A stretch of 64,000 nt of DNA from an uncultured bacterium (GTDB lineage: Bacteria > Patescibacteriota > Minisyncoccia > Phycocordibacterales > JAACPR01): positions 72,745 to 136,744 of the forward strand of contig CALLZK010000024.1 in NCBI GenBank assembly GCA_937858275.1, given 5' to 3'. Both the position numbers and the translations under genes were made by a program. This document shows positions 197 to 57,563 of the stretch, in pieces. The notes beneath the pieces were generated by a model. The model saw nothing but the letters and a program-made list of their open reading frames with translations, was not told where the DNA came from and did not search any database. Position 1 is the stretch's first letter. Each line of letters opens with the position of its first letter.

Positions 197-931
197 ATGA
201 AAAAAAAGGAAATTTTATTTTTTTGTGCATCTTTAATAATATTAGGAGCGATTATTGCCACAGCCATTGTTGTGATTAGAAATAACAAAAATAATCCTCA
301 AACAAAAATAAAAGTTAAGGACGAAATATCCGGCTTATCTTATTCCATAAACACAATATCAGAAGATGATAATGTTTTAGGAAATCCAAATGCAAATGTT
401 GTACTAATCAATTATTCCGATTTTCAATGTCCGCATTGTAGAGAATTTCATTCAACGGTAATCAGATTAGTAGCCAATTATTCAAAAACTGGTGATTTTG
501 CATGGGTATATAGACATTTTCCAACAGAAGAAGCTGTCGGTAAAGCAAAAAACTCTATTTCAAAAAAAGCATCAGTTGCATCAGAATGTGTAAAAGAAAT
601 CTCTGGTCCAACTGCATTTTGGGATTTTATTCATGAAATATATACAAGTCTACCAATAGATTTTGATGAGGCCGACTTACAGACACTTGCTTCAAAAATG
701 AATGTAAATCAAGAGCTTTATTTGAGTTGTATAAATAGCGGAAGATACGATGCTAAAATTCAAAAACACATAGAAGACGGATTGGCCATATCAAAAAAAG
801 ATAAAGATTTTGGTACACCATATAACATATTTATAACAAGAGACGGTCGTCAAATTATTTTACCCGGCCCCCAATCTTATACAACCCTAAATGAATTAGT
901 TAGAATTTATTCTACAACAATTCGTCGATAA
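197..931 (+). CDS. DsbA-family thiol:disulfide oxidoreductase with an N-terminal membrane anchor
   Basis: N-terminal hydrophobic helix. Thioredoxin-fold active site FQCPHC (CxxC) in a DsbA-like context. The upstream TGtTATAAT sits immediately before the ATG. Confidence 0.75.
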   Translation: MKKKEILFFCASLIILGAIIATAIVVIRNNKNNPQTKIKVKDEISGLSYSINTISEDDNVLGNPNANVVLINYSDFQCPHCREFHSTVIRLVANYSKTGDFAWVYRHFPTEEAVGKAKNSISKKASVASECVKEISGPTAFWDFIHEIYTSLPIDFDEADLQTLASKMNVNQELYLSCINSGRYDAKIQKHIEDGLAISKKDKDFGTPYNIFITRDGRQIILPGPQSYTTLNELVRIYSTTIRR

Positions 932-37763: not shown

Positions 37764-37835
37764 GGCGTGGTGGCGAAGTGGAAACGCTGCGGTCTGCAAA
37801 ACCGCCATGCGCGGGTTCGATTCCCGCCCACGCCT
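37764..37835 (+). tRNA. tRNA-Cys (GCA)
   Basis: Acceptor stem GGCGTGG/CCACGCC, anticodon loop CTGCAAA, T-arm GCGGGTTCGATTCCCGC, discriminator U as is typical for tRNA-Cys. Confidence 0.8.
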
Positions 37836-37867
37836 CAAGTTTGAAAATATTTTCAAACAAAAATAAA

Positions 37868-37949
37868 GCCCGGGTGGCGGAATTGGTATACGCGCACGAC
37901 TTAAAATCGTGTCCCTTACGGGTTGCGGGTTCGACCCCCGCCCCGGGCA
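37868..37949 (+). tRNA. tRNA-Leu (TAA), type II
   Basis: Acceptor stem GCCCGGG/CCCGGGC, anticodon stem-loop CACGA-CTTAAAA-TCGTG, long variable arm, T-arm GCGGGTTCGACCCCCGC. Confidence 0.85.
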
Positions 37950-38007
37950 CAAATAGAAAGTTTTAAAATTACAAGTGCACTCGCACGACTTTCTATTCAA
38001 ATATTTG

Positions 38008-38050
38008 CGTGTCCCTTACGGGTTGCGGGTTCGACCCCCGCCCCGGGCAC
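38008..38050 (+). repeat. 43-nt direct duplicate of the 3' portion of tRNA-Leu(TAA) (identical to 37908-37950), exactly 100 bp downstream
   Basis: CGTGTCCCTTACGGGTTGCGGGTTCGACCCCCGCCCCGGGCAC occurs twice. The intervening 57 bp contains a 10-bp inverted repeat AATAGAAAGT/ACTTTCTATT. Confidence 0.85.
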
Positions 38051-38061
38051 AATAAAATAAA

Positions 38062-38134
38062 CCGCCCATAGCTCAGTTGGTAGAGCACCCGCCTCTTAAG
38101 CGGAGGGTCGTAGGTTCAAATCCTACTGGGCGGA
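38062..38134 (+). tRNA. tRNA-Lys (CTT)
   Basis: Acceptor stem CCGCCCA/TGGGCGG, D-arm GCTCAGTTGGTAGAGC, anticodon loop CTCTTAA, T-arm GTAGGTTCAAATCCTAC. Confidence 0.8.
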
Positions 38135-38192
38135 CAAAAATAATTTAAAAATCTTGCTTAGTTATGTTTTTATGTGTAATATATTTAACATT

Positions 38193-38273
38193 GCGCGGGT
38201 GGTGAAATGGCAGACACGCTTGCCTTAGGAGCAAGTGCCGCAAGGCATGGAGGTTCAAGTCCTCTCCCGCGCA
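38193..38273 (+). tRNA. tRNA-Leu (TAG), type II
   Basis: Acceptor stem GCGCGGG/CCCGCGC, anticodon stem-loop CTTGC-CTTAGGA-GCAAG, long variable arm, T-arm GGAGGTTCAAGTCCTCT. Confidence 0.85.
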
Positions 38274-38626
38274 CATAAAACAAAGGAGGAGGATGCGAAA
38301 GCATTCTCCGACTTTTGTTTTACAAGCGGAGAGGGCTTGAAAGCCGGACTGAGTAAAAAGAGCGGAGCGATTTTTTACGAAGGAGGCGGGGTCGCGAGTT
38401 TCGAGGCAAAGCCGAGAAAATTTGTGACCAAGTCCTCTCCCGCGCACATAAAACAAAGGAGGAGGATGCGAAAGCATTCTCCGACTTTTGTTTTACAAGC
38501 GGAGAGGGCTTGAAAGCCGGACTGAGTAAAAAGAGCGGAGCGATTTTTTACGAAGGAGGCGGGGTCGCGAGTTTCGAGGCAAAGCCGAGAAAACTTGTGA
38601 CCAAGTCCTCTCCCGCGCACATAAAA
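38256..38626 (+). repeat. 173-bp tandem repeat, about 2.1 copies, each unit beginning with the last approximately 19 nt of tRNA-Leu(TAG)
   Basis: Units at 38256-38428 and 38429-38601, plus a partial third copy at 38602-38626. The full units differ by a single T/C. CAAGTCCTCTCCCGCGCACATAAAA recurs three times. Confidence 0.9.
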
Positions 38627-44825: not shown

Positions 44826-45245
44826 ATGAAAATTTTGATAATAGACGATAATAGGTCGGTTGCTGAAAAGATGAGTAAAATTATAACCGATTTTCTCATC
44901 GGGGCCGAAGTTACAGTTTGTTCAATGTCTTACAGTCCAGATCAAAGTCCGAGACTTAGGATTCCGGACATTGATACTGTCCAGAGACTTATCGAGAGTC
45001 ACGACCTAATCTTGATAGATCACAATCTTGGACAGATTGAGTTTGATGGTTCAATTTTGGCAAGATTTTGTCAAAAAAATGGTAAATTTCACATAGGAAT
45101 TTCTAGCCATTCATCTTTTTGCAAGACAAATTTTATGGCCAAACATGAACTAGATATTCATCCGGCATTTGTTGAAGCATTCGAAAACATTTTGGCAGAT
45201 ACGATTGCCGAAATGAAGAAAATTCAATTATCCAAAATTAGATAG
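44826..45245 (+). CDS. Orphan response-regulator receiver (REC) domain protein with no output domain
   Basis: MKILIIDDN and the phospho-acceptor context DLILIDHNL. About 45% GC. Own Shine-Dalgarno and terminator. No histidine kinase nearby. Confidence 0.55.
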   Translation: MKILIIDDNRSVAEKMSKIITDFLIGAEVTVCSMSYSPDQSPRLRIPDIDTVQRLIESHDLILIDHNLGQIEFDGSILARFCQKNGKFHIGISSHSSFCKTNFMAKHELDIHPAFVEAFENILADTIAEMKKIQLSKIR

Positions 45246-46394: not shown

Positions 46395-46411
46395 ATTTCA
46401 CTTAAAAATAT

Positions 46412-46440
46412 AAAACCCCGACATTAGTCGGGGTTTTATA
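46412..46440 (+). terminator. Rho-independent terminator (CCCCGAC...GTCGGGG followed by TTTT)
   Basis: A 7-bp GC stem, a 4-nt loop and a T-run. Confidence 0.75.
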
Positions 46441-46461
46441 TTTTTGTAGACTACAAATTAT

Positions 46462-46704
46462 CTATCCGTAAACGGTTCTTAGGGCGATTCTAATTATAGA
46501 AAATACCCCCATCATAATGACCATTCCGACAATACCCCACAAAATATGTCTTTTGCCAGTTTCTCTACCATCTGCAGATTCAGCATCTCTTATAAATTCA
46601 AAGACACCCCACAGAAAAATAACAAATGCAACTGCAAATACAACAAATATTAATGGGTTTATTATGACATTTGATAATCTTTGTATGAATATTTCTATGG
46701 TCAT
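46462..46704 (-). CDS. Small two-helix membrane protein, pilin-like (TrbC/VirB2-like) paralog 6; no signal peptide
   Basis: Two hydrophobic helices joined by a charged loop (RDAESADGRETGKRH). Paralogous to the five upstream genes. Confidence 0.5.
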   Translation of the reverse strand: MTIEIFIQRLSNVIINPLIFVVFAVAFVIFLWGVFEFIRDAESADGRETGKRHILWGIVGMVIMMGVFSIIRIALRTVYG

Positions 46705-46715
46705 TTTATTTTTTA

Positions 46716-47051
46716 TTACAAACCAGGAATTGTAGGTACTGCTGTTGTTCCACCGGTTCCTATACCAAATGTTGATGCCAACAATTCAATAATTCCCCAA
46801 ACGGAGACTATCACAAACAAGCCCACTATACCCCAAATCATAAAAGATTTTGCTTCAGATTGTCCGTCAGCATCTTTTGAAAGAATATATTTTATAACAC
46901 CCCAAATGAATGTTAATAAAGCAATACCAATCAAAATTGGAACCAAAGAACTAATTATTCCACCTATTGTATTTACTCCATCTGTTAATGTCTGAGCAAA
47001 AGACACAACAGGTAAAATGAAAGCAACTAATAAATAAGAAACATGTTTCAT
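46716..47051 (-). CDS. Pilin-like (TrbC/VirB2-like) small membrane protein paralog 5
   Basis: Signal peptide ending SFA-QTL, then helix, a charged loop SKDADGQSEAKS, a second helix, and a Gly/Thr-rich tail. Confidence 0.55.
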   Translation of the reverse strand: MKHVSYLLVAFILPVVSFAQTLTDGVNTIGGIISSLVPILIGIALLTFIWGVIKYILSKDADGQSEAKSFMIWGIVGLFVIVSVWGIIELLASTFGIGTGGTTAVPTIPGL

Positions 47052-47166
47052 GTTAAATTTAAATTTTAAGAATGTTATTAATAATACATTTGAACTATCT
47101 TAAATAGCTCAGTATTAATTATATATTATTAAATATTAAATAACAATAAAAATAGTGTGGATTGTT

Positions 47167-47430
47167 TTATAATCTAATTATTGGTATTCCAAAAGAAAAT
47201 CCAAATGTACCCGATACCATAGAAACTATTCCCCAAAAAGAAACCATCACAAAAAGACCAATTATTCCAGCCGCAATATATCTCAAACTTTCTTTCCTTT
47301 TTTCTTCGCTATCAGAATTTGTAAGGTATATAACAAGACCATACAAAAAGACAACTAGTGCTATTGCGATGATGAATAAAGCAACATATCCAGACAAAAC
47401 TGTTATTCTATAAAATACCTGCTGAAGCAT
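47167..47430 (-). CDS. Pilin-like small membrane protein paralog 4; no signal peptide
   Basis: Two TM helices joined by the loop TNSDSEEKRKESLRY. Confidence 0.5.
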   Translation of the reverse strand: MLQQVFYRITVLSGYVALFIIAIALVVFLYGLVIYLTNSDSEEKRKESLRYIAAGIIGLFVMVSFWGIVSMVSGTFGFSFGIPIIRL

Positions 47431-47486
47431 AATTTTATTTATTTAATTAATTATATAATAACACAAATTATTAATATCGTAATACC

Positions 47487-47840
47487 CTATGGCCTTAAAG
47501 ACCTTATTGATTCTGGTTGTGTTGGCAGAGAAACATTTCCAACTCTAAAAGTTCTCTGTAACATAACAACCAAACCCCAAACAGATACCATTACAAAAAG
47601 GAATATTATACCGTAGACTATCACCGAAACCGCATTCTTTTTTTCTGATTCACTGGTTGATATTACATATTTTATTATACCCCAAATAAAAGCGACTAAA
47701 CCAAGACCGATGATTAGGGGTATGATATATATTTTTATTATGAGCGATAAATAAATAAAAAAATCATTTAAGTTACCAATTGATTGGGCATATGATATGT
47801 TTGGTAAAAAAATTAAAGCAAATTTTAAAAATATATTCAT
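47487..47840 (-). CDS. Pilin-like small membrane protein paralog 3
   Basis: Signal peptide ending SYA-QSI, then two helices and the loop STSESEKKNAVS. Confidence 0.55.
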   Translation of the reverse strand: MNIFLKFALIFLPNISYAQSIGNLNDFFIYLSLIIKIYIIPLIIGLGLVAFIWGIIKYVISTSESEKKNAVSVIVYGIIFLFVMVSVWGLVVMLQRTFRVGNVSLPTQPESIRSLRP

Positions 47841-47844
47841 AATT

Positions 47845-48192
47845 TTATATATTAACTCCCAATCCTCTGGCAGTACTTACAATAATATTACTTAGCAATT
47901 GAGCACCAAGCAAAACAATTGCCCCGATAACTGTCCACAAGAACACACTTTTTGCTTGATTTATTTTTTCTGGATTACCCCTTGCTGCGATAAATAGAAA
48001 TCCGGCATAAATTATGGCAAGTACCACAATCACAGTTCCAACTGTTACAACAACATCTAATATTCTATTTATCAGAACCCCCATATTACTAACCCCTATC
48101 GGATCATTTAGTCCGCTATTTAATGTTTGACCAAATGTAATTGTTGGTAAAAGTATTGTTGTCAAAAAACCTGTTTTAATTATTTGTTTCAT
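47845..48192 (-). CDS. Pilin-like small membrane protein paralog 2
   Basis: Signal peptide ending TFG-QTL, then two helices and the loop ARGNPEKINQAKS. Confidence 0.55.
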   Translation of the reverse strand: MKQIIKTGFLTTILLPTITFGQTLNSGLNDPIGVSNMGVLINRILDVVVTVGTVIVVLAIIYAGFLFIAARGNPEKINQAKSVFLWTVIGAIVLLGAQLLSNIIVSTARGLGVNI

Positions 48193-48193
48193 A

Positions 48194-48607
48194 TTATCTA
48201 ATTACTCTGTTATAAAGTTCTATTATTTCTCTACCTGTTGGAGTAGATTTTAAACCAAAAGCCGCAGCTATTAAATCAACAATCAAATAAGCCGATATTG
48301 CAAACAAAAAACCAAATAATATTTTTTTGAATACACCATGAGCTTTTGATATTTGGGAGGAATTGCCAGCAGCTGTCATATACAAAAATCCTGCCCAAGC
48401 AAAACCTATTGCCGACAGAACTAAACCGATATTTATTGCAAATTTTATTATATTGACCAATAGTGTTCCAACCGCATTCAAATCACATTTAGGTCCACCA
48501 TCAGCTCTTGGTCCGACACATGGGACTAGTCCCGCGAAAGACTGTAGAGGTATGAAAACGGTAAAACAAATTAAAAATATTTTGATTAGGTTTTTTCTGA
48601 AATTCAT
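48194..48607 (-). CDS. Pilin-like small membrane protein paralog 1
   Basis: Signal peptide ending SFA-GLV, a Cys pair (CVGPRADGGPKC), then two helices and the loop AAGNSSQISKAHG. Confidence 0.55.
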   Translation of the reverse strand: MNFRKNLIKIFLICFTVFIPLQSFAGLVPCVGPRADGGPKCDLNAVGTLLVNIIKFAINIGLVLSAIGFAWAGFLYMTAAGNSSQISKAHGVFKKILFGFLFAISAYLIVDLIAAAFGLKSTPTGREIIELYNRVIR

Positions 48608-48612
48608 ATTAT

Positions 48613-49926
48613 TTATTTTAACATATTTGAAATTTCTTGGTGAGCCCTTTGTACAGATCTGTTAACATCCAAATTTCCTACTAAAACAGATTCTATCATA
48701 CTTTTAAAAATATTACTTGTCTCAGAAACTCCCGGATCAAGAAAAGGAATAGAAAAAAGTGCGGATCGATTAAAAACTTCAGCATACGATAAGTTTTCTG
48801 TCGGAATAACAACATCTCTTCTGACGGTTGGAAGTCCGGTCAACTCTGATAATATTTTTATGTTTTGTGGTTCTATTAATTTTAAAACATTATTAAAAGA
48901 ACTGGATATTTTTGATGAATTTCTTGATATTGCAATTAAATTCATTTGTCCAAGAGTTTTGTTTATTTCAATATTATTTCCAAAAGCTTTTGATTGTGGT
49001 AAAACCGCAACATCAAAATTTAAGTTTGGATTTTTTTGCAAAATAATATCTCTTTCACTAGCATATCCAATATAAAAAACCAAATCACCGGACAGAAACA
49101 TTTGCTTGGAAGAAGGCATTGATCTATTCCAAGTATACACATCTCGTGTTGGATTAGAAAACTGCAAAAAGAAACTCAAAGCAGCATCAGCTGGTCGTGT
49201 AGAAAAATTAAAATGTTTATCCAAAACAGATTCAAACGTATTACTTGTTTGATCTAATGTAATTAAATTATTTCCAGCCTGTTGAATCATTGCAATTAAA
49301 ACTTCTTTTGCGTTGTCAATGTTTTGATATTCACCCAAAGCTATTACTGGTCTTGAAATATTTGCGGCGGTATCCCTTCTGACTAATCTTGGTATTATGG
49401 AAAAAAGATCATCCCAAAATCTTGGAGGAGATGAGATGCCGTCATTATTTAAAATTGTTCTATTCCAATACATAACCAAGGGATCTATGGTTAGTGGAAA
49501 TCCAATTATTCCATTGTTTCTAAGTAAGACCTCCGCTGATTCTATAAAACTATCTTTGTATTTTTTGTTAGTAAAAAACTTGTAATCAATAAGAAAAAGT
49601 TTATTTTGATGTTTTAAGGTCAAATCATCTGGAATGATTACAATGTCTGGACCAGTGCCAGCAGCCATGGCATCTATCCATCTTTTTTCAAATTCATCAG
49701 GTTCTATCTCTGTGTATTTAAAATTAACAGACTCCCTTTCTGCTTCGTTTATTCTCTTACTCCATTCGTTTACAATTTTTGATGGAATAATGCCCCAAAT
49801 TTCAACGGTTGATTTTGACTGACTTTCTTGTCCTCTTTGCAAAGCAAAAACCGCAACCGATCCAACAATAATAAAAATAGCGACACCCAAAGTTATTATT
49901 TGAAATGTAGACATTTTATCATTCAT
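48613..49926 (-). CDS. Extracellular solute-binding protein (ABC SBP family 1-like) with an N-terminal TM anchor; no cognate permease or ATPase adjacent
   Basis: VEIWGI...AAGTGPDIV...YWNRTIL...SSPPRFWDDL follows the SBP_bac_1 consensus. Confidence 0.7.
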   Translation of the reverse strand: MNDKMSTFQIITLGVAIFIIVGSVAVFALQRGQESQSKSTVEIWGIIPSKIVNEWSKRINEAERESVNFKYTEIEPDEFEKRWIDAMAAGTGPDIVIIPDDLTLKHQNKLFLIDYKFFTNKKYKDSFIESAEVLLRNNGIIGFPLTIDPLVMYWNRTILNNDGISSPPRFWDDLFSIIPRLVRRDTAANISRPVIALGEYQNIDNAKEVLIAMIQQAGNNLITLDQTSNTFESVLDKHFNFSTRPADAALSFFLQFSNPTRDVYTWNRSMPSSKQMFLSGDLVFYIGYASERDIILQKNPNLNFDVAVLPQSKAFGNNIEINKTLGQMNLIAISRNSSKISSSFNNVLKLIEPQNIKILSELTGLPTVRRDVVIPTENLSYAEVFNRSALFSIPFLDPGVSETSNIFKSMIESVLVGNLDVNRSVQRAHQEISNMLK

Positions 49927-50453
49927 AATGTTTTAAAAATTAATCCATAATGATGATCTCCGGCATTTATCTCTTTTTCAAAGACAAAATTAGCATTTTC
50001 AAACATAGTTCTGGCAACATCTGGTTTTATGACACTTCCCGGTGTTGGACCAAGGCCACCAAAAGAATCAGTCCAATCAATCAAAAGAATTTTTCCGGTT
50101 TTTCTCTTTAAAATACGATTGGCTTCGGTCAAAAAAGATTCTGGTTTTTCTATTTGAAATAAAACATTTGCAATTAAAACACGGTCAACAGAATGGTCTC
50201 TGATTTTTGTACCACCAATCTCGTCTAAATCACCCCATATGAATTTTATATTTTTCAATCCCCTATTTTCCGATTCTATTTTTAACTTATCCAATAATTC
50301 TTTTTGAACCTCTACAGCATATACTGAACCTGATGGACCAACAATTTCTGACAAAAGCATAGTGTAAAATCCAACACCAGAACCAAGATCTGCAACAGAC
50401 ATTCCTGGGTCTATATGAAATTGTTGTAAATTTGTAATTGGATCTGAAAACAT
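49923..50453 (-). CDS. Class I SAM-dependent methyltransferase
   Basis: Motif I VADLGSGVGFYT plus acidic post-I and motif II regions. Confidence 0.75.
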   Translation of the reverse strand: MFSDPITNLQQFHIDPGMSVADLGSGVGFYTMLLSEIVGPSGSVYAVEVQKELLDKLKIESENRGLKNIKFIWGDLDEIGGTKIRDHSVDRVLIANVLFQIEKPESFLTEANRILKRKTGKILLIDWTDSFGGLGPTPGSVIKPDVARTMFENANFVFEKEINAGDHHYGLIFKTL

Positions 50454-50540: not shown

Positions 50541-53021
50541 TTAAAAAGTAATTAACGATGCAATATGGTCACCATCTTTTAATTTCATAACTCTAACACC
50601 CTGTGTTTGCCTACCAAGTATAGGTATTTCGTCTATATCTATTCTAATAACTTGTCCTTTTTCAGACATTGCAACAACCTCATCAGTTTCTTCTGTGACA
50701 ACTGCTGCGGAAATTATTTTACCTATTTTATCTGTAACTTTTGCAGTTTTTATTCCAGAACCGCCTCTTTTTTGAACCTTATACTCATCAAGCGGTGTTT
50801 GCTTACCAAATCCATTTGAAGAAAAAACTAAAAGATTGTTATTTTTGTACTCTTTTTTGATAGTTAAAGTGCAGACGACTCTATCTTTTGAATTTATATT
50901 TATTCCCCTAACCCCAGATGCGCCACGACCCATTTCACGAATGTCAGATTCTTTGAACCTGATAGATTGGCCCTGATTTGTGACAACAACAACATCATCT
51001 CCTTTTGTGACAAAATGAGCGGAAATTAGTTTGTCAGAATCTTTCAATTTTATAGCAATAATTCCATTTTTTCTGACATCGTGAAAACTTTCCGCATCTA
51101 CTTTTTTGATAACACCATTTTCGGTCATCATCATCACAGACATTCCGTCTGTTTTTTTCAATTCTTTGGGCATTGCCAAAACAGAAGTAATTAATTCATC
51201 AGAACTAATGGATAAAAAGTTGGCAATAGATTTTCCTTTTGTAGCCCTTTTACCCTCGGGAATTTCATACATTTTTATTTGATAGACTTTTCCTTTGTTT
51301 GTAAAAAATAACAAATCGCTATGTGTCGTGGTGTACACTAATCTTTTTACAAAATCTTCTTCTTTTGTATCAAGATCTATAACACCAACACCACCTCTTC
51401 TTTGTTTTTTGTATTCATCTGGATTAGTTCTTTTTATATAACCACCATTTGTCAAAACAAGAACACTTTCTTCATCTGGAACAATATCTTCTATGGAAAT
51501 ATTTTTTACACCACCAGAAATTATTTTTGTTTTTCTATCGTCAGAATATTTATTTCTCACATCTGTCAATTCTTTCTTTATTAAATTTCTCATCTTTGTA
51601 TTGCTTTTTAGCAAATCTTCCAATTCTGAAATAAGTTTTTGAACTTGCAATAACTCGTCTTCTATTTTCTTTCTTTCAAGACCAGCCAGCTTTTGTAATT
51701 TCATTTCCAAAATTGCCGTCGCCTGAATTTCGCTAAATTTGAATCCCTTCATCAAATTAAGATGAGCAGTTGGTGTATCTTTTGAGGCTTTTATAATTTT
51801 TATTATTTCATCAATATGATCTAATGCTTTTTTAAGCCCAATCAAAATATGTTCTCTAGCTTTCGCTTTTGCCAAATCAAATTTTGTTCTTCTGGTAACA
51901 ACTTCAAAACGATGTTTTACAAATTGTTCTAAAATTGATTTTAGACCAAGAGTTTGGGGAACCCCATCAACTAATGCCACCATATTATAATGAAAAGCTT
52001 CTTCTAATTGGGTGTGTTTGTAAATATAATTTAAAATATTTTGAGGATGAGCACTTGATTTTATATCAATAACTATTCTTATTTCATCAGTTGACTCATC
52101 TCTTAGACCTTTTATACCTTCTATTTTTTTCTCTGAGTGTAATTCGGCAATTTTTGAGATTAAATCAGATTTGTTAACTCTGTATGGTATTGATGTTATT
52201 ACTATTTGACTAGAGCCAGATTTGTCTTCGACAATTTCTGCTTCTCCTCTAGTTATAACACCACCTCGACCAGAGGCATATGCTGTATATATGCTTTTTT
52301 TATCAAAAGCCAATCCGCCAGTTGGAAAATCTGGACCCTTAACAAATTGCATTAAATCTTCCGTGGTGGCTTTTGGATTTTCTAAAATACAAATTGTGGC
52401 ATCTATTATTTCTCCTAAATTATGCGGTGGTATGTTTGAAGCCATTCCAACAGCAATACCAAGTGTTCCATTCAAAAGTAAGTTTGGAACATTAGAAGGA
52501 AGAACAACTGGTTCTTTTTTTGTTGAATCAAAATTTGGTCTAAAATCAACTGTGTCTTTTTCCAAATCTGTCAGAAGTTCTTCTGATAATTTACTCATTT
52601 TTGCCTCAGTATAACGATATGCAGCAGGCGGATCACCGTCAACAGAACCGAAGTTTCCTTGTCCCAAAACAAGTGGATATCTAATAGAAAATGTTTGAGC
52701 CAATTTTACCATAGCATCATAAACAGAAGCATCTCCATGAGGATGATAATTACCGATAACATCTCCAACTACTGTAGCTGATTTTTTGAATTTTGCAGAC
52801 GATGTTAAATTCATTTTGTTCATTGAAAACAAGATTCTACGATGAACTGGTTTTAGACCATCTCTAACATCCGGCAAAGCTCTTGCCGTTATAACAGACA
52901 TGGCATAATCAAGATATGATTTTCGCATCTCATCACTGATTGGTGACTCGATTATTTGTCCGACCAACTTTGGCTCTTCTTGTTGATTATTTTTATTTTT
53001 ATCTAAATCGTTTTTTTTCAT
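50541..53021 (-). CDS. gyrA: DNA gyrase subunit A
   Basis: [29 protein letters not shown] with the active-site Tyr region, and C-terminal beta-pinwheel repeats. Confidence 0.97.
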
Positions 53022-53036
53022 ATTTTTTAAATTTTA

Positions 53037-53252
53037 TTAAAATGCATTTTTTACGGTATTAATCATTGCTGGAAATGGTGAATTTTCTTGCGACACATCA
53101 GAAATTTCTTTTACAGAATTACTAAAATTTGTAAAAAACCAAAAAATAAATATTATAATTGTGAGAATTATTGCCAAATTAAAAGAAATTATATTCTTTT
53201 GGGTATCACTTTTATTTTTTCTTATATATTCTAAATAATTTAGAAATCCCAT
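53037..53252 (-). CDS. Small hypothetical membrane protein (71 aa)
   Basis: ORF with one hydrophobic segment immediately upstream of gyrA. No other support. Confidence 0.3.
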   Translation of the reverse strand: MGFLNYLEYIRKNKSDTQKNIISFNLAIILTIIIFIFWFFTNFSNSVKEISDVSQENSPFPAMINTVKNAF

Positions 53253-53257
53253 AAAAT

Positions 53258-53887
53258 TTATTTTAAAATTACTATGTCGCTCTCTTTGCCCTCTAAATCC
53301 TTTTTCTTTATAACTAATTTTTCAACAGGTTTTATACCATCTTCTCCAGCTTCTTTCAAAAATCTTTTTAGGGAATCTTTTTGTCCGACCTGTCCGTAAT
53401 GAATTGGTATAATAATTCCCGGCTCTCTTTTTGCAGCAAAATCATATGCTTCTTCTGCTTCCAAAACTCCATCACCACCAATCGGCACAAAAATAATATC
53501 AACTTCCCCTATTTCTTCTTTTATTTCATTTGGAATATTTGTATCAGAAATAGCACCAGTAAATAAAATATTTATTCCTTCAACATTTAAGGAATATACC
53601 GTATTAATTTTTTCTTTTCCGCCATAATTTGTTTTTGTGGGAAAGCCTCTTATAAAAAATCCTTTGACTTCGTATTCTCCGGGACCGTCTATAACAACTG
53701 GTGTTTGATCATTTCTGGTTGCGGTCTCTACACCATTTAAATCTGGATGATTTGTCGTAATTAACACAATATCAGAACCAAAACTGGTACTAGAAAAATT
53801 GGATTTTTTTGAAGGTGGATTTATGGCAACAGTAATATTGCCTTGATTTATTTTGACAGTTTGAATATTGTCGTAAGTTATAATCAT
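53258..53887 (-). CDS. Metallo-beta-lactamase-fold hydrolase (UPF0173-like)
   Basis: SDIVLITTNHPDLNG resembles the HxHxDH region of MBL-fold proteins. Confidence 0.6.
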   Translation of the reverse strand: MIITYDNIQTVKINQGNITVAINPPSKKSNFSSTSFGSDIVLITTNHPDLNGVETATRNDQTPVVIDGPGEYEVKGFFIRGFPTKTNYGGKEKINTVYSLNVEGINILFTGAISDTNIPNEIKEEIGEVDIIFVPIGGDGVLEAEEAYDFAAKREPGIIIPIHYGQVGQKDSLKRFLKEAGEDGIKPVEKLVIKKKDLEGKESDIVILK

Positions 53888-53986
53888 ATAGAAAAGTATT
53901 ATATCAAACTTATTTTTTTAATGCTATTTACTTTTATTAAAAAATATGTTTATAATTTTGTGTTCATTGATTATTATTAACACTAA

Positions 53987-54071
53987 AAAATTTCAGTAAC
54001 CCTGTCGGCAAAAACCGCATGTATAGAAAAAGTAAGTAAAGAACCGACAAACCTGAAATTTTTTCATAAAA
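53987..54071 (+). promoter_or_regulatory. Extended imperfect hairpin in the rpsA 5' leader that occludes the translation start region
   Basis: A perfect 12-bp inverted repeat AAAAAATTTCAG/CTGAAATTTTTT plus an inner 6-bp TGTCGG/CCGACA. The right arm ends 10 nt before the ATG and no Shine-Dalgarno is present. Confidence 0.45.
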
Positions 54072-55175
54072 ATGAAAAAAATAGAAAAAAGTAATAAAGA
54101 AGAGGTTGTTTCAGAATTTATAAGTAATTTACCCAACCCCCCAATGGTAGGAGATGTTGTTGAGGGACCAATAGTTGCCATAGACAAGGCTTCTGTTTAT
54201 ATAGATCTTCACCCTTTTGGAACTGGAATTATAATGGGTAGAGAATATATAATTGCCAGAGATTTAATTAGAAAAATTCATGTTGGAGATATTGTTAGTG
54301 CGAAAGTTTCTGATTTAAAAAATGATGACGGCTATATAGAATTATCTCTGAAAGAAGCAAAACAAGCTTTGATTTGGAACGAGGTAGAAAAAGCAATCAA
54401 AGAAAAAACAACTTTAGAATTAGTTGTGCAAGATGCCAATAAGGGAGGTTTGCTTATGAGTTGGCAAGGTGTTCAGGGTTTTCTACCAGCATCTCAATTG
54501 AGACCAGAAAATTATCCAAGAGTAATGGATGGTGATAAGGTGAAAATTCTTGAAGAACTTAAAAAATTAATTGGGCAAAAATTAGATGTAATAATTATTG
54601 GTGCCACATCAAACGATGGAAAATTAATCTTCTCTGAGAAAGGTTCTTCTACAGAAAAATCTCCAGAACACAAAATTGGTGAAATAAAACAAGAAAATAA
54701 ATATAAAGTTGGAGATATATTAGAAGGAGAAGTCACTGGAATAGTAGATTTTGGTATTTTTGTTAAAATCTCAAATGAAACAGAAGGATTGGTACATATT
54801 TCAGAAATAGACTGGTCACTAGTTGAAAATCCAAGAACACATGTAAATGTTGGGGATCAAATAAAAGTAAAAATTATAGAAATAAAAGATGGAAAAATAT
54901 CTCTATCAATCAAGGCACTCAAAGAAAATCCTTGGGTTGAAGCTGGAAGAAAATACAAAAAAGGCATGGTTGTCAAAGGAATAATAATAAAACACAACAA
55001 ACACGGTGCTTTGGCGTCAATTGAAGAAGGAGTTGCGGGACTTGTCCACATTTCAGAATTTAAAGATATTGCCGAACTTAGAGAAAAACTAGAATTAGGA
55101 AAAGTTTATGATTTCAAAATAACTTTATTTGAAGCAAAAGAACAAAAAATGACACTTTCAAATAAATTAGATTAA
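54072..55175 (+). CDS. rpsA: 30S ribosomal protein S1, short four-S1-domain form
   Basis: Repeated S1 motifs: GDVVEGPIVAI, GDIVSAKVSD, GDILEGEVTGIVDFGIFVKI, GMVVKGIIIKHNKHGALASI. Confidence 0.85.
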   Translation: MKKIEKSNKEEVVSEFISNLPNPPMVGDVVEGPIVAIDKASVYIDLHPFGTGIIMGREYIIARDLIRKIHVGDIVSAKVSDLKNDDGYIELSLKEAKQALIWNEVEKAIKEKTTLELVVQDANKGGLLMSWQGVQGFLPASQLRPENYPRVMDGDKVKILEELKKLIGQKLDVIIIGATSNDGKLIFSEKGSSTEKSPEHKIGEIKQENKYKVGDILEGEVTGIVDFGIFVKISNETEGLVHISEIDWSLVENPRTHVNVGDQIKVKIIEIKDGKISLSIKALKENPWVEAGRKYKKGMVVKGIIIKHNKHGALASIEEGVAGLVHISEFKDIAELREKLELGKVYDFKITLFEAKEQKMTLSNKLD

Positions 55176-55825: not shown

Positions 55826-56380
55826 ATGTTTAGTGTAAAAGATATAAAAGAAACCGCACTATTTATTTTGGTGACAATAATTGTCGTTTTACCAATAAGA
55901 ATTTTTGTGGCTCAACCGTTTGTTGTCAGCGGAACATCAATGTATCCAACTTTTGATACGGGACATTATCTTATAGTTGATCAGATTACATACAAATTCT
56001 CTTCCCCAAAAAGAGGAGATGTTGTGGTTTTCAAATACCCAGAAGACACAAGTAAGTATTTTATAAAAAGAATTATAGGATTGCCTGGCGAAACGGTTGA
56101 AATAAAAGATAATGTGGTCAAAATAATAAAAGAAAATGACGGAAATGTAATAGAACAATATCTGGAAGAGCCATATGTAAAATTACAATCAAATAACATT
56201 TCTTTTTTAAAACTAAATGATAATGAATATTTTGTAATGGGAGACAATAGATCGGCCAGTTTGGATTCTAGATTTTGGGGCCCTTTAGATAAAGAATTTA
56301 TAAAAGGTAGAGCACTTATCAGAATTACACCGGTTAAAAAAATTGGCATTTTACCAGGAGATGTGAATTTTAATTTTTAA
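55826..56380 (+). CDS. lepB: Signal peptidase I
   Basis: Catalytic-Ser box VSGTSMYPT, Lys box KRIIGLPGE, and GDNRSASLDSRFWG. Confidence 0.9.
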   Translation: MFSVKDIKETALFILVTIIVVLPIRIFVAQPFVVSGTSMYPTFDTGHYLIVDQITYKFSSPKRGDVVVFKYPEDTSKYFIKRIIGLPGETVEIKDNVVKIIKENDGNVIEQYLEEPYVKLQSNNISFLKLNDNEYFVMGDNRSASLDSRFWGPLDKEFIKGRALIRITPVKKIGILPGDVNFNF

Positions 56381-56390
56381 TAAATAAATT

Positions 56391-57563
56391 ATGAAAAAAA
56401 CAAATAAACAAGAAGGAAATAATATTTTAAAGTCAGAATTAATTGCTAAATATTTTGGTTTTATAAAAACACAACCAGAAGAAGTCACAAAAGAAGATGA
56501 AAAAGTCACAAGTGCAATAAGTCGACAAAAAAATTATATTTCTGAAAATTTACCATCAATTTCTGAAATGTATGCCCTGCTTAGAAGATATAAAGATGAC
56601 AAAGAAAAAGAAATGGTTGAGCCAGATGTTATTTATTATGAGGGATCAGCATCAGGAAAACATCCAAAACATAGAAAAAAAAGTGGCGAGGAATTGATAA
56701 ATTTACAAATTATAAATGTTAATGGCAGTATTGCAGAGGCGGTTATAATTCAAACCATAAAAACAATTTTAGCAGAACATGGTATAAAAAACATAATTGT
56801 AAAATTAAATGATATTGGCGACAGAGACTGTTTAAATGCATATTATAGAGAAGCTACGAATTACTACAGAAAAAACATAAACGAATTAAATAATCATTGC
56901 CGTCAATTATTTAAGGAGGGTGTTCACGAACTTGTAACAAGAGGTAAAAATCAATGTACAACAATTCATGAAAATGCCCCAAAACCGATGGATTTTTTGG
57001 ATGAGGAATCAAGAAAAAGATTCAGTGAGGTTTTGGAATTTTTAGAAACATTAGATATACAATACGAAGTTGATCATTCCATACTTGGTGATCCGAATTA
57101 TTCAACACATACAGTTTTTGAAGTAATGGACAAAGAAACTGAACGAATTTTTTCTTCCGGGGGTCGATATGATTCTTTGGCTAGAAAAAGTGGTTTGAGA
57201 AAAGACATACCATCTGTTGGTGCTCTTTTAAATTTACCAAATCCACAAGTGGTTTCATCAAAAATAATCAAAAAATTTGATAAAGCAAATTTCTTTTTCC
57301 TACAAATTGGATATATGGCAAAATTAAAATCTCTTCTTGTTATAGAAGAGTTTAGAAACAAAAATATTCCAGTTATACACAAATTATATCGTGACAGATT
57401 AAGTAGTCAGATATCTTCCGCAAAAAAATCTAGTTCTGAACATTTTATAATAATGGGACAGAAAGAAGCACTTGCCGACGAATTGATTGTTAGGGATAGA
57501 GAAAGCAAATCTCAAAAAATAGTTAAGTTCAAAGACTTATTTGAATATATAAAATCTTTATAA
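56391..57563 (+). CDS. Histidyl-tRNA synthetase-like paralog with a degenerate class II catalytic core and an intact anticodon-binding-like C-terminus (HisZ-like)
   Basis: HisRS motif-3-like SSGGRYDSLA and a class IIa anticodon-binding-domain-like tail (IIMGQKEALADELIVRDRES). Motif 2 (the FRxE / RxxxGRxREF pattern) is not recognisable. Confidence 0.6.
   Translation: MKKTNKQEGNNILKSELIAKYFGFIKTQPEEVTKEDEKVTSAISRQKNYISENLPSISEMYALLRRYKDDKEKEMVEPDVIYYEGSASGKHPKHRKKSGEELINLQIINVNGSIAEAVIIQTIKTILAEHGIKNIIVKLNDIGDRDCLNAYYREATNYYRKNINELNNHCRQLFKEGVHELVTRGKNQCTTIHENAPKPMDFLDEESRKRFSEVLEFLETLDIQYEVDHSILGDPNYSTHTVFEVMDKETERIFSSGGRYDSLARKSGLRKDIPSVGALLNLPNPQVVSSKIIKKFDKANFFFLQIGYMAKLKSLLVIEEFRNKNIPVIHKLYRDRLSSQISSAKKSSSEHFIIMGQKEALADELIVRDRESKSQKIVKFKDLFEYIKSL

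Follow-up and report, generated by a model that had tools for sequence, protein, structure and literature searches.

A considerable part of bacterial diversity belongs to the Patescibacteria, which live attached to other microbes. The DNA considered here, a stretch of 64,000 nucleotides (the window) from contig CALLZK010000024.1 of an uncultured bacterium of this group, known from a metagenome-assembled genome of the Paceibacteria (Parcubacteria), carries between positions 46,462 and 48,607 six tandem genes on the minus strand, p1 to p6 in the order of their transcription, and it is these genes, their products and their surroundings that are our subject (Table 1). An earlier note, made from the letters alone, had described six open reading frames (ORFs) of 80 to 137 codons there and likened their products to the TrbC/VirB2 pilins of type IV secretion systems (T4SSs); all six are present where that note placed them, as are the loops that it quoted. 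They are genuine genes and not chance ORFs, since all six are called by gene predictors in public assemblies and since orthologous arrays, at 35-70% identity, are present in more than 80 other genomes. The gaps between them, from p1 to p6, are 1, 4, 56, 115 and 11 nt.

Table 1. The array genes and the features around them (positions in the window)
Feature	Position	Strand	Length	Description
p1	48194-48607	-	137 aa	class-1 pilin, array gene 1
p2	47845-48192	-	115 aa	class-2 pilin, array gene 2; most TrbC/VirB2-like of the six
p3	47487-47840	-	117 aa	middle copy, of the expanding class-5-like group
p4	47167-47430	-	87 aa	middle copy without leader
p5	46716-47051	-	111 aa	class-5 pilin, penultimate; candidate major subunit
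p6	46462-46704	-	80 aa	class-6 pilin without leader, end of array
Spacer upstream of p5	47052-47166	-	115 bp	promoter-like site and ATCCACA
Solute-binding-protein homologue	48613-49926	-	437 aa	membrane-anchored, MalE/oligosaccharide-type fold; PF01547 SBP_bac_1
Methyltransferase	49923-50453	-	176 aa	class I S-adenosylmethionine methyltransferase; PF13847, PF08241, PF13649
Hairpin	46404-46445	.		RNA fold; GC core 46416-46433, A and T runs on either side
Peptidase_S26 gene	55826-56380

An alignment of the six proteins revealed a common core of a hydrophobic helix, a charged loop and a second hydrophobic helix, with pairwise identities of 13-42% (mean 26.4%), the closest pair within the array being p3 and p5 at 42%. 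Inspection of the sequences found signal-peptide-like N-terminal segments in p1, p2, p3 and p5, the same count of four in six that the earlier note had given; p4 and p6 have no leader, and their ORFs are already the longest possible and cannot be extended. The leaders are predicted to end at …LQSFA↓GLV in p1, …TITFG↓QTL in p2, …NISYA↓QSI in p3 and …VVSFA↓QTL in p5, and of the cleavage motif that had been claimed for four copies the Q at +1 stands in three (TFG↓QTL, SYA↓QSI and SFA↓QTL), the fourth reading SFA↓GLV. In p1 the predicted extracellular segment that follows the leader carries a pair of cysteines (CVGPRADGGPKC), and after it comes the two-helix core.

The best Pfam match of all six proteins was PF18895 (T4SS_pilin), at E values from 1.4e-9 to 2.9e-4, and three of them scored above its curated gathering cut-off of 26.6 bits, namely p2 (38.3 bits, E 1.4e-9), p5 (38.2 bits, E 1.6e-9) and p4 (34.9 bits, E 1.7e-8). 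PF04956 (TrbC), with a cut-off of 27.9 bits, ranked second for p2 (24.5 bits, E 3.1e-5) and p1 (15.4 bits, E 0.022); it gave no match for p3, p4, p5 or p6, and none of the six reached its cut-off. The pilin family named in the earlier note was thereby borne out: to judge from these profiles the array proteins are related to VirB2/TrbC, yet by the curated threshold they are not members of PF04956. Among the NCBIfam models the best match for five of the six was NF045849 (Mbov_0395), an equivalog with a cut-off of 40 bits, and although the alignments spanned nearly the whole model all scores were below that threshold (p4 37.7, p5 31.0, p2 29.7, p6 26.2 with E 4.6e-6, and p3 15.0 bits), p1 having no match to it. 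All 41 of the 41 database homologues of p5 carry PF18895. Modelled by AlphaFold2 (AF2) from an alignment of 45 sequences, p5 takes the form of a helical hairpin with helices at residues 3-57 and 61-95, the confidence (pLDDT) being 80.5 and rising above 90 over the core. Alignment, hydropathy and AF2 model thus agree on a core of about 70 residues with two hydrophobic helices and a short polar loop, which is the architecture of PF18895, and conservation is highest in the helices, intermediate in the loop and lowest at the termini.

The earlier note had itself named a better match to holins or bacteriocin-immunity proteins as a ground for refuting the pilin reading. Helical hairpins are indistinguishable by fold searches, and PHROGs did produce a single holin match, to p4, but at E 0.027 and 15.6 bits, with none for the other five; Pfam at E values up to 1 listed no holin or immunity family for any of p1-p6, and for all six the pilin profile is ahead of every alternative by several orders of magnitude. 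Nor were any phage, lysis or bacteriocin genes found near the array, which lies in a conserved block of the core chromosome; the window holds rpoB/C, dnaG, a sigma-70 gene, dnaE, gyrA, ftsA/Z, the gene for IF2, that for enolase and similar genes. That the six are holins, immunity proteins or other unrelated membrane proteins, pilin-like by their hydrophobicity only, is effectively refuted by these results and hardly credible.

Arrays of pilin genes in Patescibacteria have already been published, and the locus is a further example of them with some lineage-specific features that were undescribed (PMC10633639, PMC12102498, PMC12857230). In Southlakia epibionticum, the one species of the group that is genetically tractable, a T4SS and its series of pilins are essential for the lifestyle of the organism (Wang et al. 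2023, PMC10633639), and the six-gene array of this species was highlighted in a 2025 review that treats a pilus in Patescibacteria as a possibility only (PMC12857230). A survey of the group is that of Quinonero-Coronel et al. 2025 (PMC12102498): 3,035 Patescibacteria genomes were searched with PF18895, PF04956 and other profiles, and 441 arrays of two to 11 divergent VirB2-like pilins, with a mean identity of 25% and a maximum of 54%, were reported from 383 assemblies, most abundantly from Microgenomatia and Saccharimonadia. An array was defined in that survey as 2-11 pilins in tandem or one non-pilin gene apart, each with an i-E value below 0.001 and a coverage above 50%; here, six adjacent genes all have E values below 0.001 and matches over about 73-96% of the 71-position profile. 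The likeness extends to the divergence of the copies, sequence being variable and structure conserved in both and the mean identity in this array being 26% against the published 25%. With the S. epibionticum ML1 cluster and the surveyed arrays our locus also shares tandem PF18895/PF04956 genes and a chromosomal setting in monoderm members of the candidate phyla radiation (CPR), and with S. epibionticum the number of six copies. Differences are that the array described here belongs to the class Paceibacteria and not to the two classes in which the survey found arrays most abundant, and that the S. epibionticum pilins are part of a T4SS cluster, whereas the array described here lies outside one, in a block of gyrA, methyltransferase, binding protein and pilins.

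That block proved to be widespread. One genome per species was scanned for a peptide pattern conserved among the pilins. Of the 435 related sites confirmed in this way 80 were examined, and with four more from a protein look-up they make up the 84 loci (here L followed by a number) on which the following counts are based; these represent about 80 species of Paceibacteria, and their pilin ORFs were found with a hidden Markov model (HMM) built from the array family. The arrays contain three to 10 pilin ORFs, most often six, then five and four, and the conserved order is MBL-fold hydrolase, gyrA, (methyltransferase), binding protein, pilins. In 72 of the 75 loci with enough sequence the gene directly upstream of the array encodes a homologue of the binding protein, at a median gap of 2 bp and with 22 overlaps; of 65 loci, 62 have gyrA upstream, and 59 of 75 have a methyltransferase homologue there. 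In the window itself the stop codon of the binding-protein gene sits 5 bp upstream of the start of p1, and the methyltransferase gene, which is preceded by gyrA, shares 4 bp with the binding-protein gene, so that it is probably in the same transcript. The binding protein was modelled by AF2 with a pLDDT of 91.7, as an N-terminal helix (residues 7-33) and a full binding-protein fold, to which the closest solved structures are oligosaccharide-binding proteins (E about 1e-21). At the other end of the array, between the stop codon of p6 and that of a convergent cold-shock gene, a hairpin of -27 kcal/mol (z -8.3 against shuffled sequences) is probably a bidirectional terminator that closes the operon. 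Two loci depart from the usual layout: their pilin genes stand in two sets of three, and about 1.7 kb of other sequence lies between the sets (L034:8383-13615 and L050:8332-13678).

The comparison of the loci also brought order to the pilins. The gene that matched p6 best was the one that closes the array in 75 of the 84 loci, and for p5 it was the penultimate gene in 68 of the 84, while the best matches of p1 (in 67 other loci) and of p2 were mostly in the most upstream positions, the positional orthologues of p2 directly following class 1. The middle copies p3 and p4 group with p5, and the best matches of p3 elsewhere are mostly class-5 genes. When each pilin was assigned to its closest paralog in the window, the commonest patterns were 1-2-5-5-5-6, 1-2-5-5-6 and 2-5-5-6, the copy number of class 5 varying from about one to six between species. 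Median identity to positional counterparts is 35-45%, equal to or above the identity to neighbours in the same array. Because the paralogs are thus usually closer to their positional counterparts than to their neighbours, there are four ancient classes in a fixed order: one of class 1, one of class 2, a variable number of class 5 and one of class 6. Recent tandem duplication was rejected as the source of the six, the closest pair within the array being only 42% identical and positional orthologues from other species being as close or closer. The absence of a leader is likewise a property of the classes: in the last position leaderless proteins of about 80-90 residues are the rule, being present there in 75 of 84 related arrays (median length of class 6, 88), and p4-like leaderless counterparts of about 87-101 residues occupy the same position in the closer relatives L009, L016, L018, L023 and L032. 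As leaderless types recur at matching positions in related arrays, p4 and p6 are conserved types, and the suggestion in the earlier note that they might be truncated was not upheld.

The same note had raised antigenic variation through the diversity of the paralogs, and interchangeable pilin variants that alter antigenicity or host range have been proposed for the VirB2 paralogs of Bartonella and Anaplasma. Low identity within the array, termini that are the least conserved parts and a class-5 copy number that differs between species would all suit such a model, which is also suggested in PMC12102498. Across most arrays, however, classes 1, 2 and 6 keep their position, length and leader status, and similarity between positional counterparts equals or exceeds that between neighbours; the conserved positional classes therefore speak for ancient, non-redundant roles, and only the class-5 copies could fit a variation model. 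Simple antigenic variation is, on this account, highly unlikely and no longer favoured.

Upstream array genes were found in more elaborate forms in other loci, where the pilin core stands C-terminal to large extracellular regions in proteins of 269-737 residues (L079:4722-6347, L045:6664-8877, L033:7544-8704, L013:7067-9996 and L034:8383-9810). Some of the fusion partners are Peptidase_S8 subtilase or Pur_ac_phosph_N (FN3-like) domains, which points to pilin subunits bearing enzymatic or adhesin-like parts. The cysteine pair of class 1 is conserved and follows the pattern C-x(5-12)-C, then D/N/S and an aromatic residue, just before helix 1 (residues ~30-41 of p1). A DsbA-like Thioredoxin_4 protein is encoded in the same window (197-931) and could form this extracellular disulfide.

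A second regularity lies between the genes. Ahead of the penultimate gene the arrays have a long junction, of 100 bp at the median and at least 60 bp in 81% of 79 arrays, against medians of 3-15 bp for the other junctions. In the window this spacer contains the best minus-strand site of a promoter scan, TTGTTA-17-TATAAT (47146 to 47118), and an extended -10-like TGnTAnAAT is also frequent in the equivalent spacers (L009-L093). A promoter call by statistics alone was rejected, with 33 promoter-like sites in the region against 37.9 in shuffled sequence, and the idea of an internal promoter is put forward because the spacer is conserved across arrays and not because of the scan. The spacers share, in addition, the heptamer ATCCACA (47156-47162 in the window), which occurs in 20 of 65 against 0.8 expected, in a single orientation only and usually no more than 25 nt from the upstream stop codon; over the window as a whole it is not enriched. 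It resembles a DnaA box, and the L012 spacer has a perfect TTATCCACA. The available part of PMC12102498 makes no mention of linkage to gyrA or a binding protein, of positional classes or of an internal spacer.

Taking these features together, we favour with moderate confidence the reading that the six genes encode differentiated VirB2-like subunits of the T4SS_pilin family, set in one chromosomal operon behind a binding protein and polymerised by a T4SS that is encoded elsewhere. Of this reading, the family of the proteins, their two-helix architecture, the layout of the operon, its synteny and the positional orthology of the copies are shown. The products of p1, p2, p3 and p5 would be inserted by the Sec pathway, and signal peptidase I would cleave them after (S/T)(F/Y)(A/G), a step for which the Peptidase_S26 gene of the window may be named, and those of p4 and p6 would be inserted as uncleaved hairpins, so that each of the six would be a membrane hairpin whose two termini face outwards and whose Lys/Arg-bearing loop faces the cell interior. 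A monoderm machine of the VirB4/VirB3/VirB6 type, related to MPF-FATA systems, would then extract the subunits and polymerise them into a pilus-like filament or a short conduit for contact with the host cell. Class 5 would be the likely bulk subunit, on the grounds of the strongest conservation among the classes, a variable copy number and possibly a promoter of its own; classes 1 and 2 would be likely minor or tip subunits, because of their longer extracellular N-terminal segments, the cysteine pair of class 1 and the fusions at upstream positions elsewhere; and class 6 may be a leaderless subunit of the base or one that initiates assembly.

The product need not be a pilus. A T4SS-linked heteromeric sleeve or channel lining across the thin CPR wall, staying in or just above the membrane, never extended into a pilus and comparable to the proteins of Mycoplasma integrative and conjugative elements (ICEs), is an unlikely alternative. 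In its favour, the curated NCBIfam model nearest to the array proteins is Mbov_0395 of Mycoplasma ICEs (p4 reaching 37.7 bits against a cut-off of 40), two of the six copies are leaderless as the ICE proteins are, and the Patescibacteria VirB4 clade, according to PMC12102498, nests in the monoderm MPF-FATA class, among whose systems pili are absent. Four of the copies, on the other hand, have the long, predicted-cleavable leader typical of VirB2/TrbC pilins, the large extracellular fusions at upstream positions in other loci suggest display away from the cell, and six to eight ordered subunits seem more than a membrane sleeve would need. The Mbov_0395 proteins are themselves alike in being about 80 residues long, leaderless and two-helical, but they are single-copy and inside a mobile element, whereas ours form a chromosomal array and score below 40 bits.

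Several observations weigh against the favoured reading. We know of no filament seen with any Patescibacteria T4SS, and the roles assigned to the classes are ones that we infer. Three of the six copies are under the PF18895 cut-off, p6 at 24.1 bits (E 3.7e-5), p3 at 23.1 (E 7.7e-5) and p1 at 21.3 (E 2.9e-4); positional orthologues of these weaker-scoring copies match PF18895 in L011 and L012, the p1 orthologue in L011 (151 residues) strongly. Fold searches returned generic helical hairpins only and were uninformative, and no solved pilin was found by sequence, a 45-sequence profile against the PDB sequences giving nothing but insignificant segments of G-protein-coupled receptors. The machine itself is missing from the neighbourhood: no T4SS ATPase or channel protein, be it VirB4, VirD4, VirB3 or VirB6, is encoded in the 64-kb window, as the earlier note had already remarked for VirB4 and VirD4, or within 10 kb beyond each end, the ORFs of at least 400 codons in the window being all housekeeping genes or the binding protein and the extensions showing housekeeping genes only. 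The related loci were screened in their 10-kb flanks as well: ORFs of at least 400 codons unmatched to genes of this contig were checked for a Walker A motif and the candidates run against Pfam, and no VirB4-like gene came to light; the sole large unexplained Walker-A ORF turned out to be a PrkA kinase. In L076 a pilin gene stands alone, its neighbours being dnaG and the genes for a sigma-70 factor and a UvrD-family helicase. Lastly, six array-bearing assemblies could be matched in the table of PMC12102498, and five of them are listed as VirB4-negative and one as positive; the accession GCA_035327505, the metagenome-assembled genome with the proteins of our array, has no entry in the tables of that survey.

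This last figure was given little weight, because several of the six assemblies are partial and because most assemblies of Zambryskibacteria, a lineage that carries the same type of array, are VirB4-positive in the survey table as available (PMC12102498). The entries for GCA_000996205.1 (L069) are instructive: the assembly is listed as VirB4-negative, yet VirB3 and TrsD are recorded about 100 genes from its listed VirB2, and where Table S3 lists that one VirB2 the family HMM detects a tandem series of at least four pilins. From this entry, arrays of the Paceibacteria type seem to be under-detected in the survey, and perhaps VirB4 itself is also under-called in fragmented metagenome-assembled genomes of Paceibacteria. 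The survey reports VirB4 in 2,417 of 3,035 assemblies, and pilin genes near virB4 in just 1,135 of 1,948 (PMC12102498).

The same facts bear on an apparatus that is independent of any T4SS, in which the binding protein and two-helix oligomers would form, for example, a device for capture and uptake or for adhesion at the host interface. The binding-protein homologue stands directly upstream of nearly every array, often with overlapping stop and start codons; its neighbours in the loci are the methyltransferase or gyrA and the pilins, and not ABC permease genes; no T4SS gene was found near any array examined; and there are the five of six matched assemblies listed as VirB4-negative. Synteny, however, extends over the entire gyrA-methyltransferase-binding-protein-pilin block, so that the adjacency may simply be inherited gene order; among the genomes listed as "VirB4-negative" one retains VirB3 and TrsD, and Zambryskibacteria are mostly VirB4-positive in the table as available; and elsewhere the pilin family is embedded in T4SS clusters (PMC10633639). 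We regard such a device as quite unlikely. A long shot, too, though the most novel outcome, would be a distinct Paceibacteria apparatus, either independent of VirB4 or consisting of a VirB2-type filament and a binding protein that captures host glycans, with four subunit classes and a bulk subunit under the DnaA-box-like ATCCACA.

The favoured reading, VirB2-like subunits assembled by a T4SS, can also be set against better-known systems. With the VirB2, TrbC and TraA pilins the array proteins share a long leader (its cleavage here being predicted) and a pair of hydrophobic helices joined by a short polar loop; they differ in that no VirB5, VirB1, TraF-type cyclase or TraX is encoded adjacent to them, in being six subunits rather than one, and in having a host with no outer membrane, unlike the Gram-negative hosts of those pilins. 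The subunit sets of type IV pili and type II pseudopili offer an analogy, not a homology, in their differentiated subunits, fixed order and one candidate for the bulk subunit, but the fold and processing are different, the array proteins lacking both a prepilin peptidase motif and the build of a single N-terminal helix with a globular head.

The locus adds no new kind of system. What it contributes is the picture, for the largest class of the CPR, of pilin genes in an operon that is inherited vertically, holds several classes in a set order, is coupled with a binding protein and lies apart from the ATPase genes, and neighbourhood surveys centred on virB4 will miss such arrays. The fixed order of the classes offers hypotheses of bulk, tip or adaptor, and leaderless base subunits for structural modelling and genetics.

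Some other features of the window may be recorded here. The cumulative GC skew has its minimum at about 52-54 kb (52000-54100), near a divergent gene pair (53887 and 54072) and about 5 kb upstream of the operon, and this might be the replication origin, although there is no dnaA nearby and the skew largely follows the gene strand. A 139-residue protein with a receiver-domain-like start (MKILIIDDN…), encoded at 44826-45245, has no Pfam or NCBIfam match at E values up to 0.001-0.01; in L010, the closest relative, it is conserved beside a DUF1295 gene. Four tRNA genes (Cys, Leu-UAA, Lys-CUU and Leu-UAG) lie at 37764-38274, and a 110-residue ORF at 38145-38477 is probably spurious, because it overlaps the last of them. 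Just outside the window is a normal histidyl-tRNA synthetase (HisRS) of 410 residues (L002:7326-8558), and within it, at 56391-57563, a second, divergent HisRS-like protein of 390 residues with weak tRNA-synt_His matches, which by its sequence looks like a HisZ-like paralog in an organism that is not expected to make histidine.

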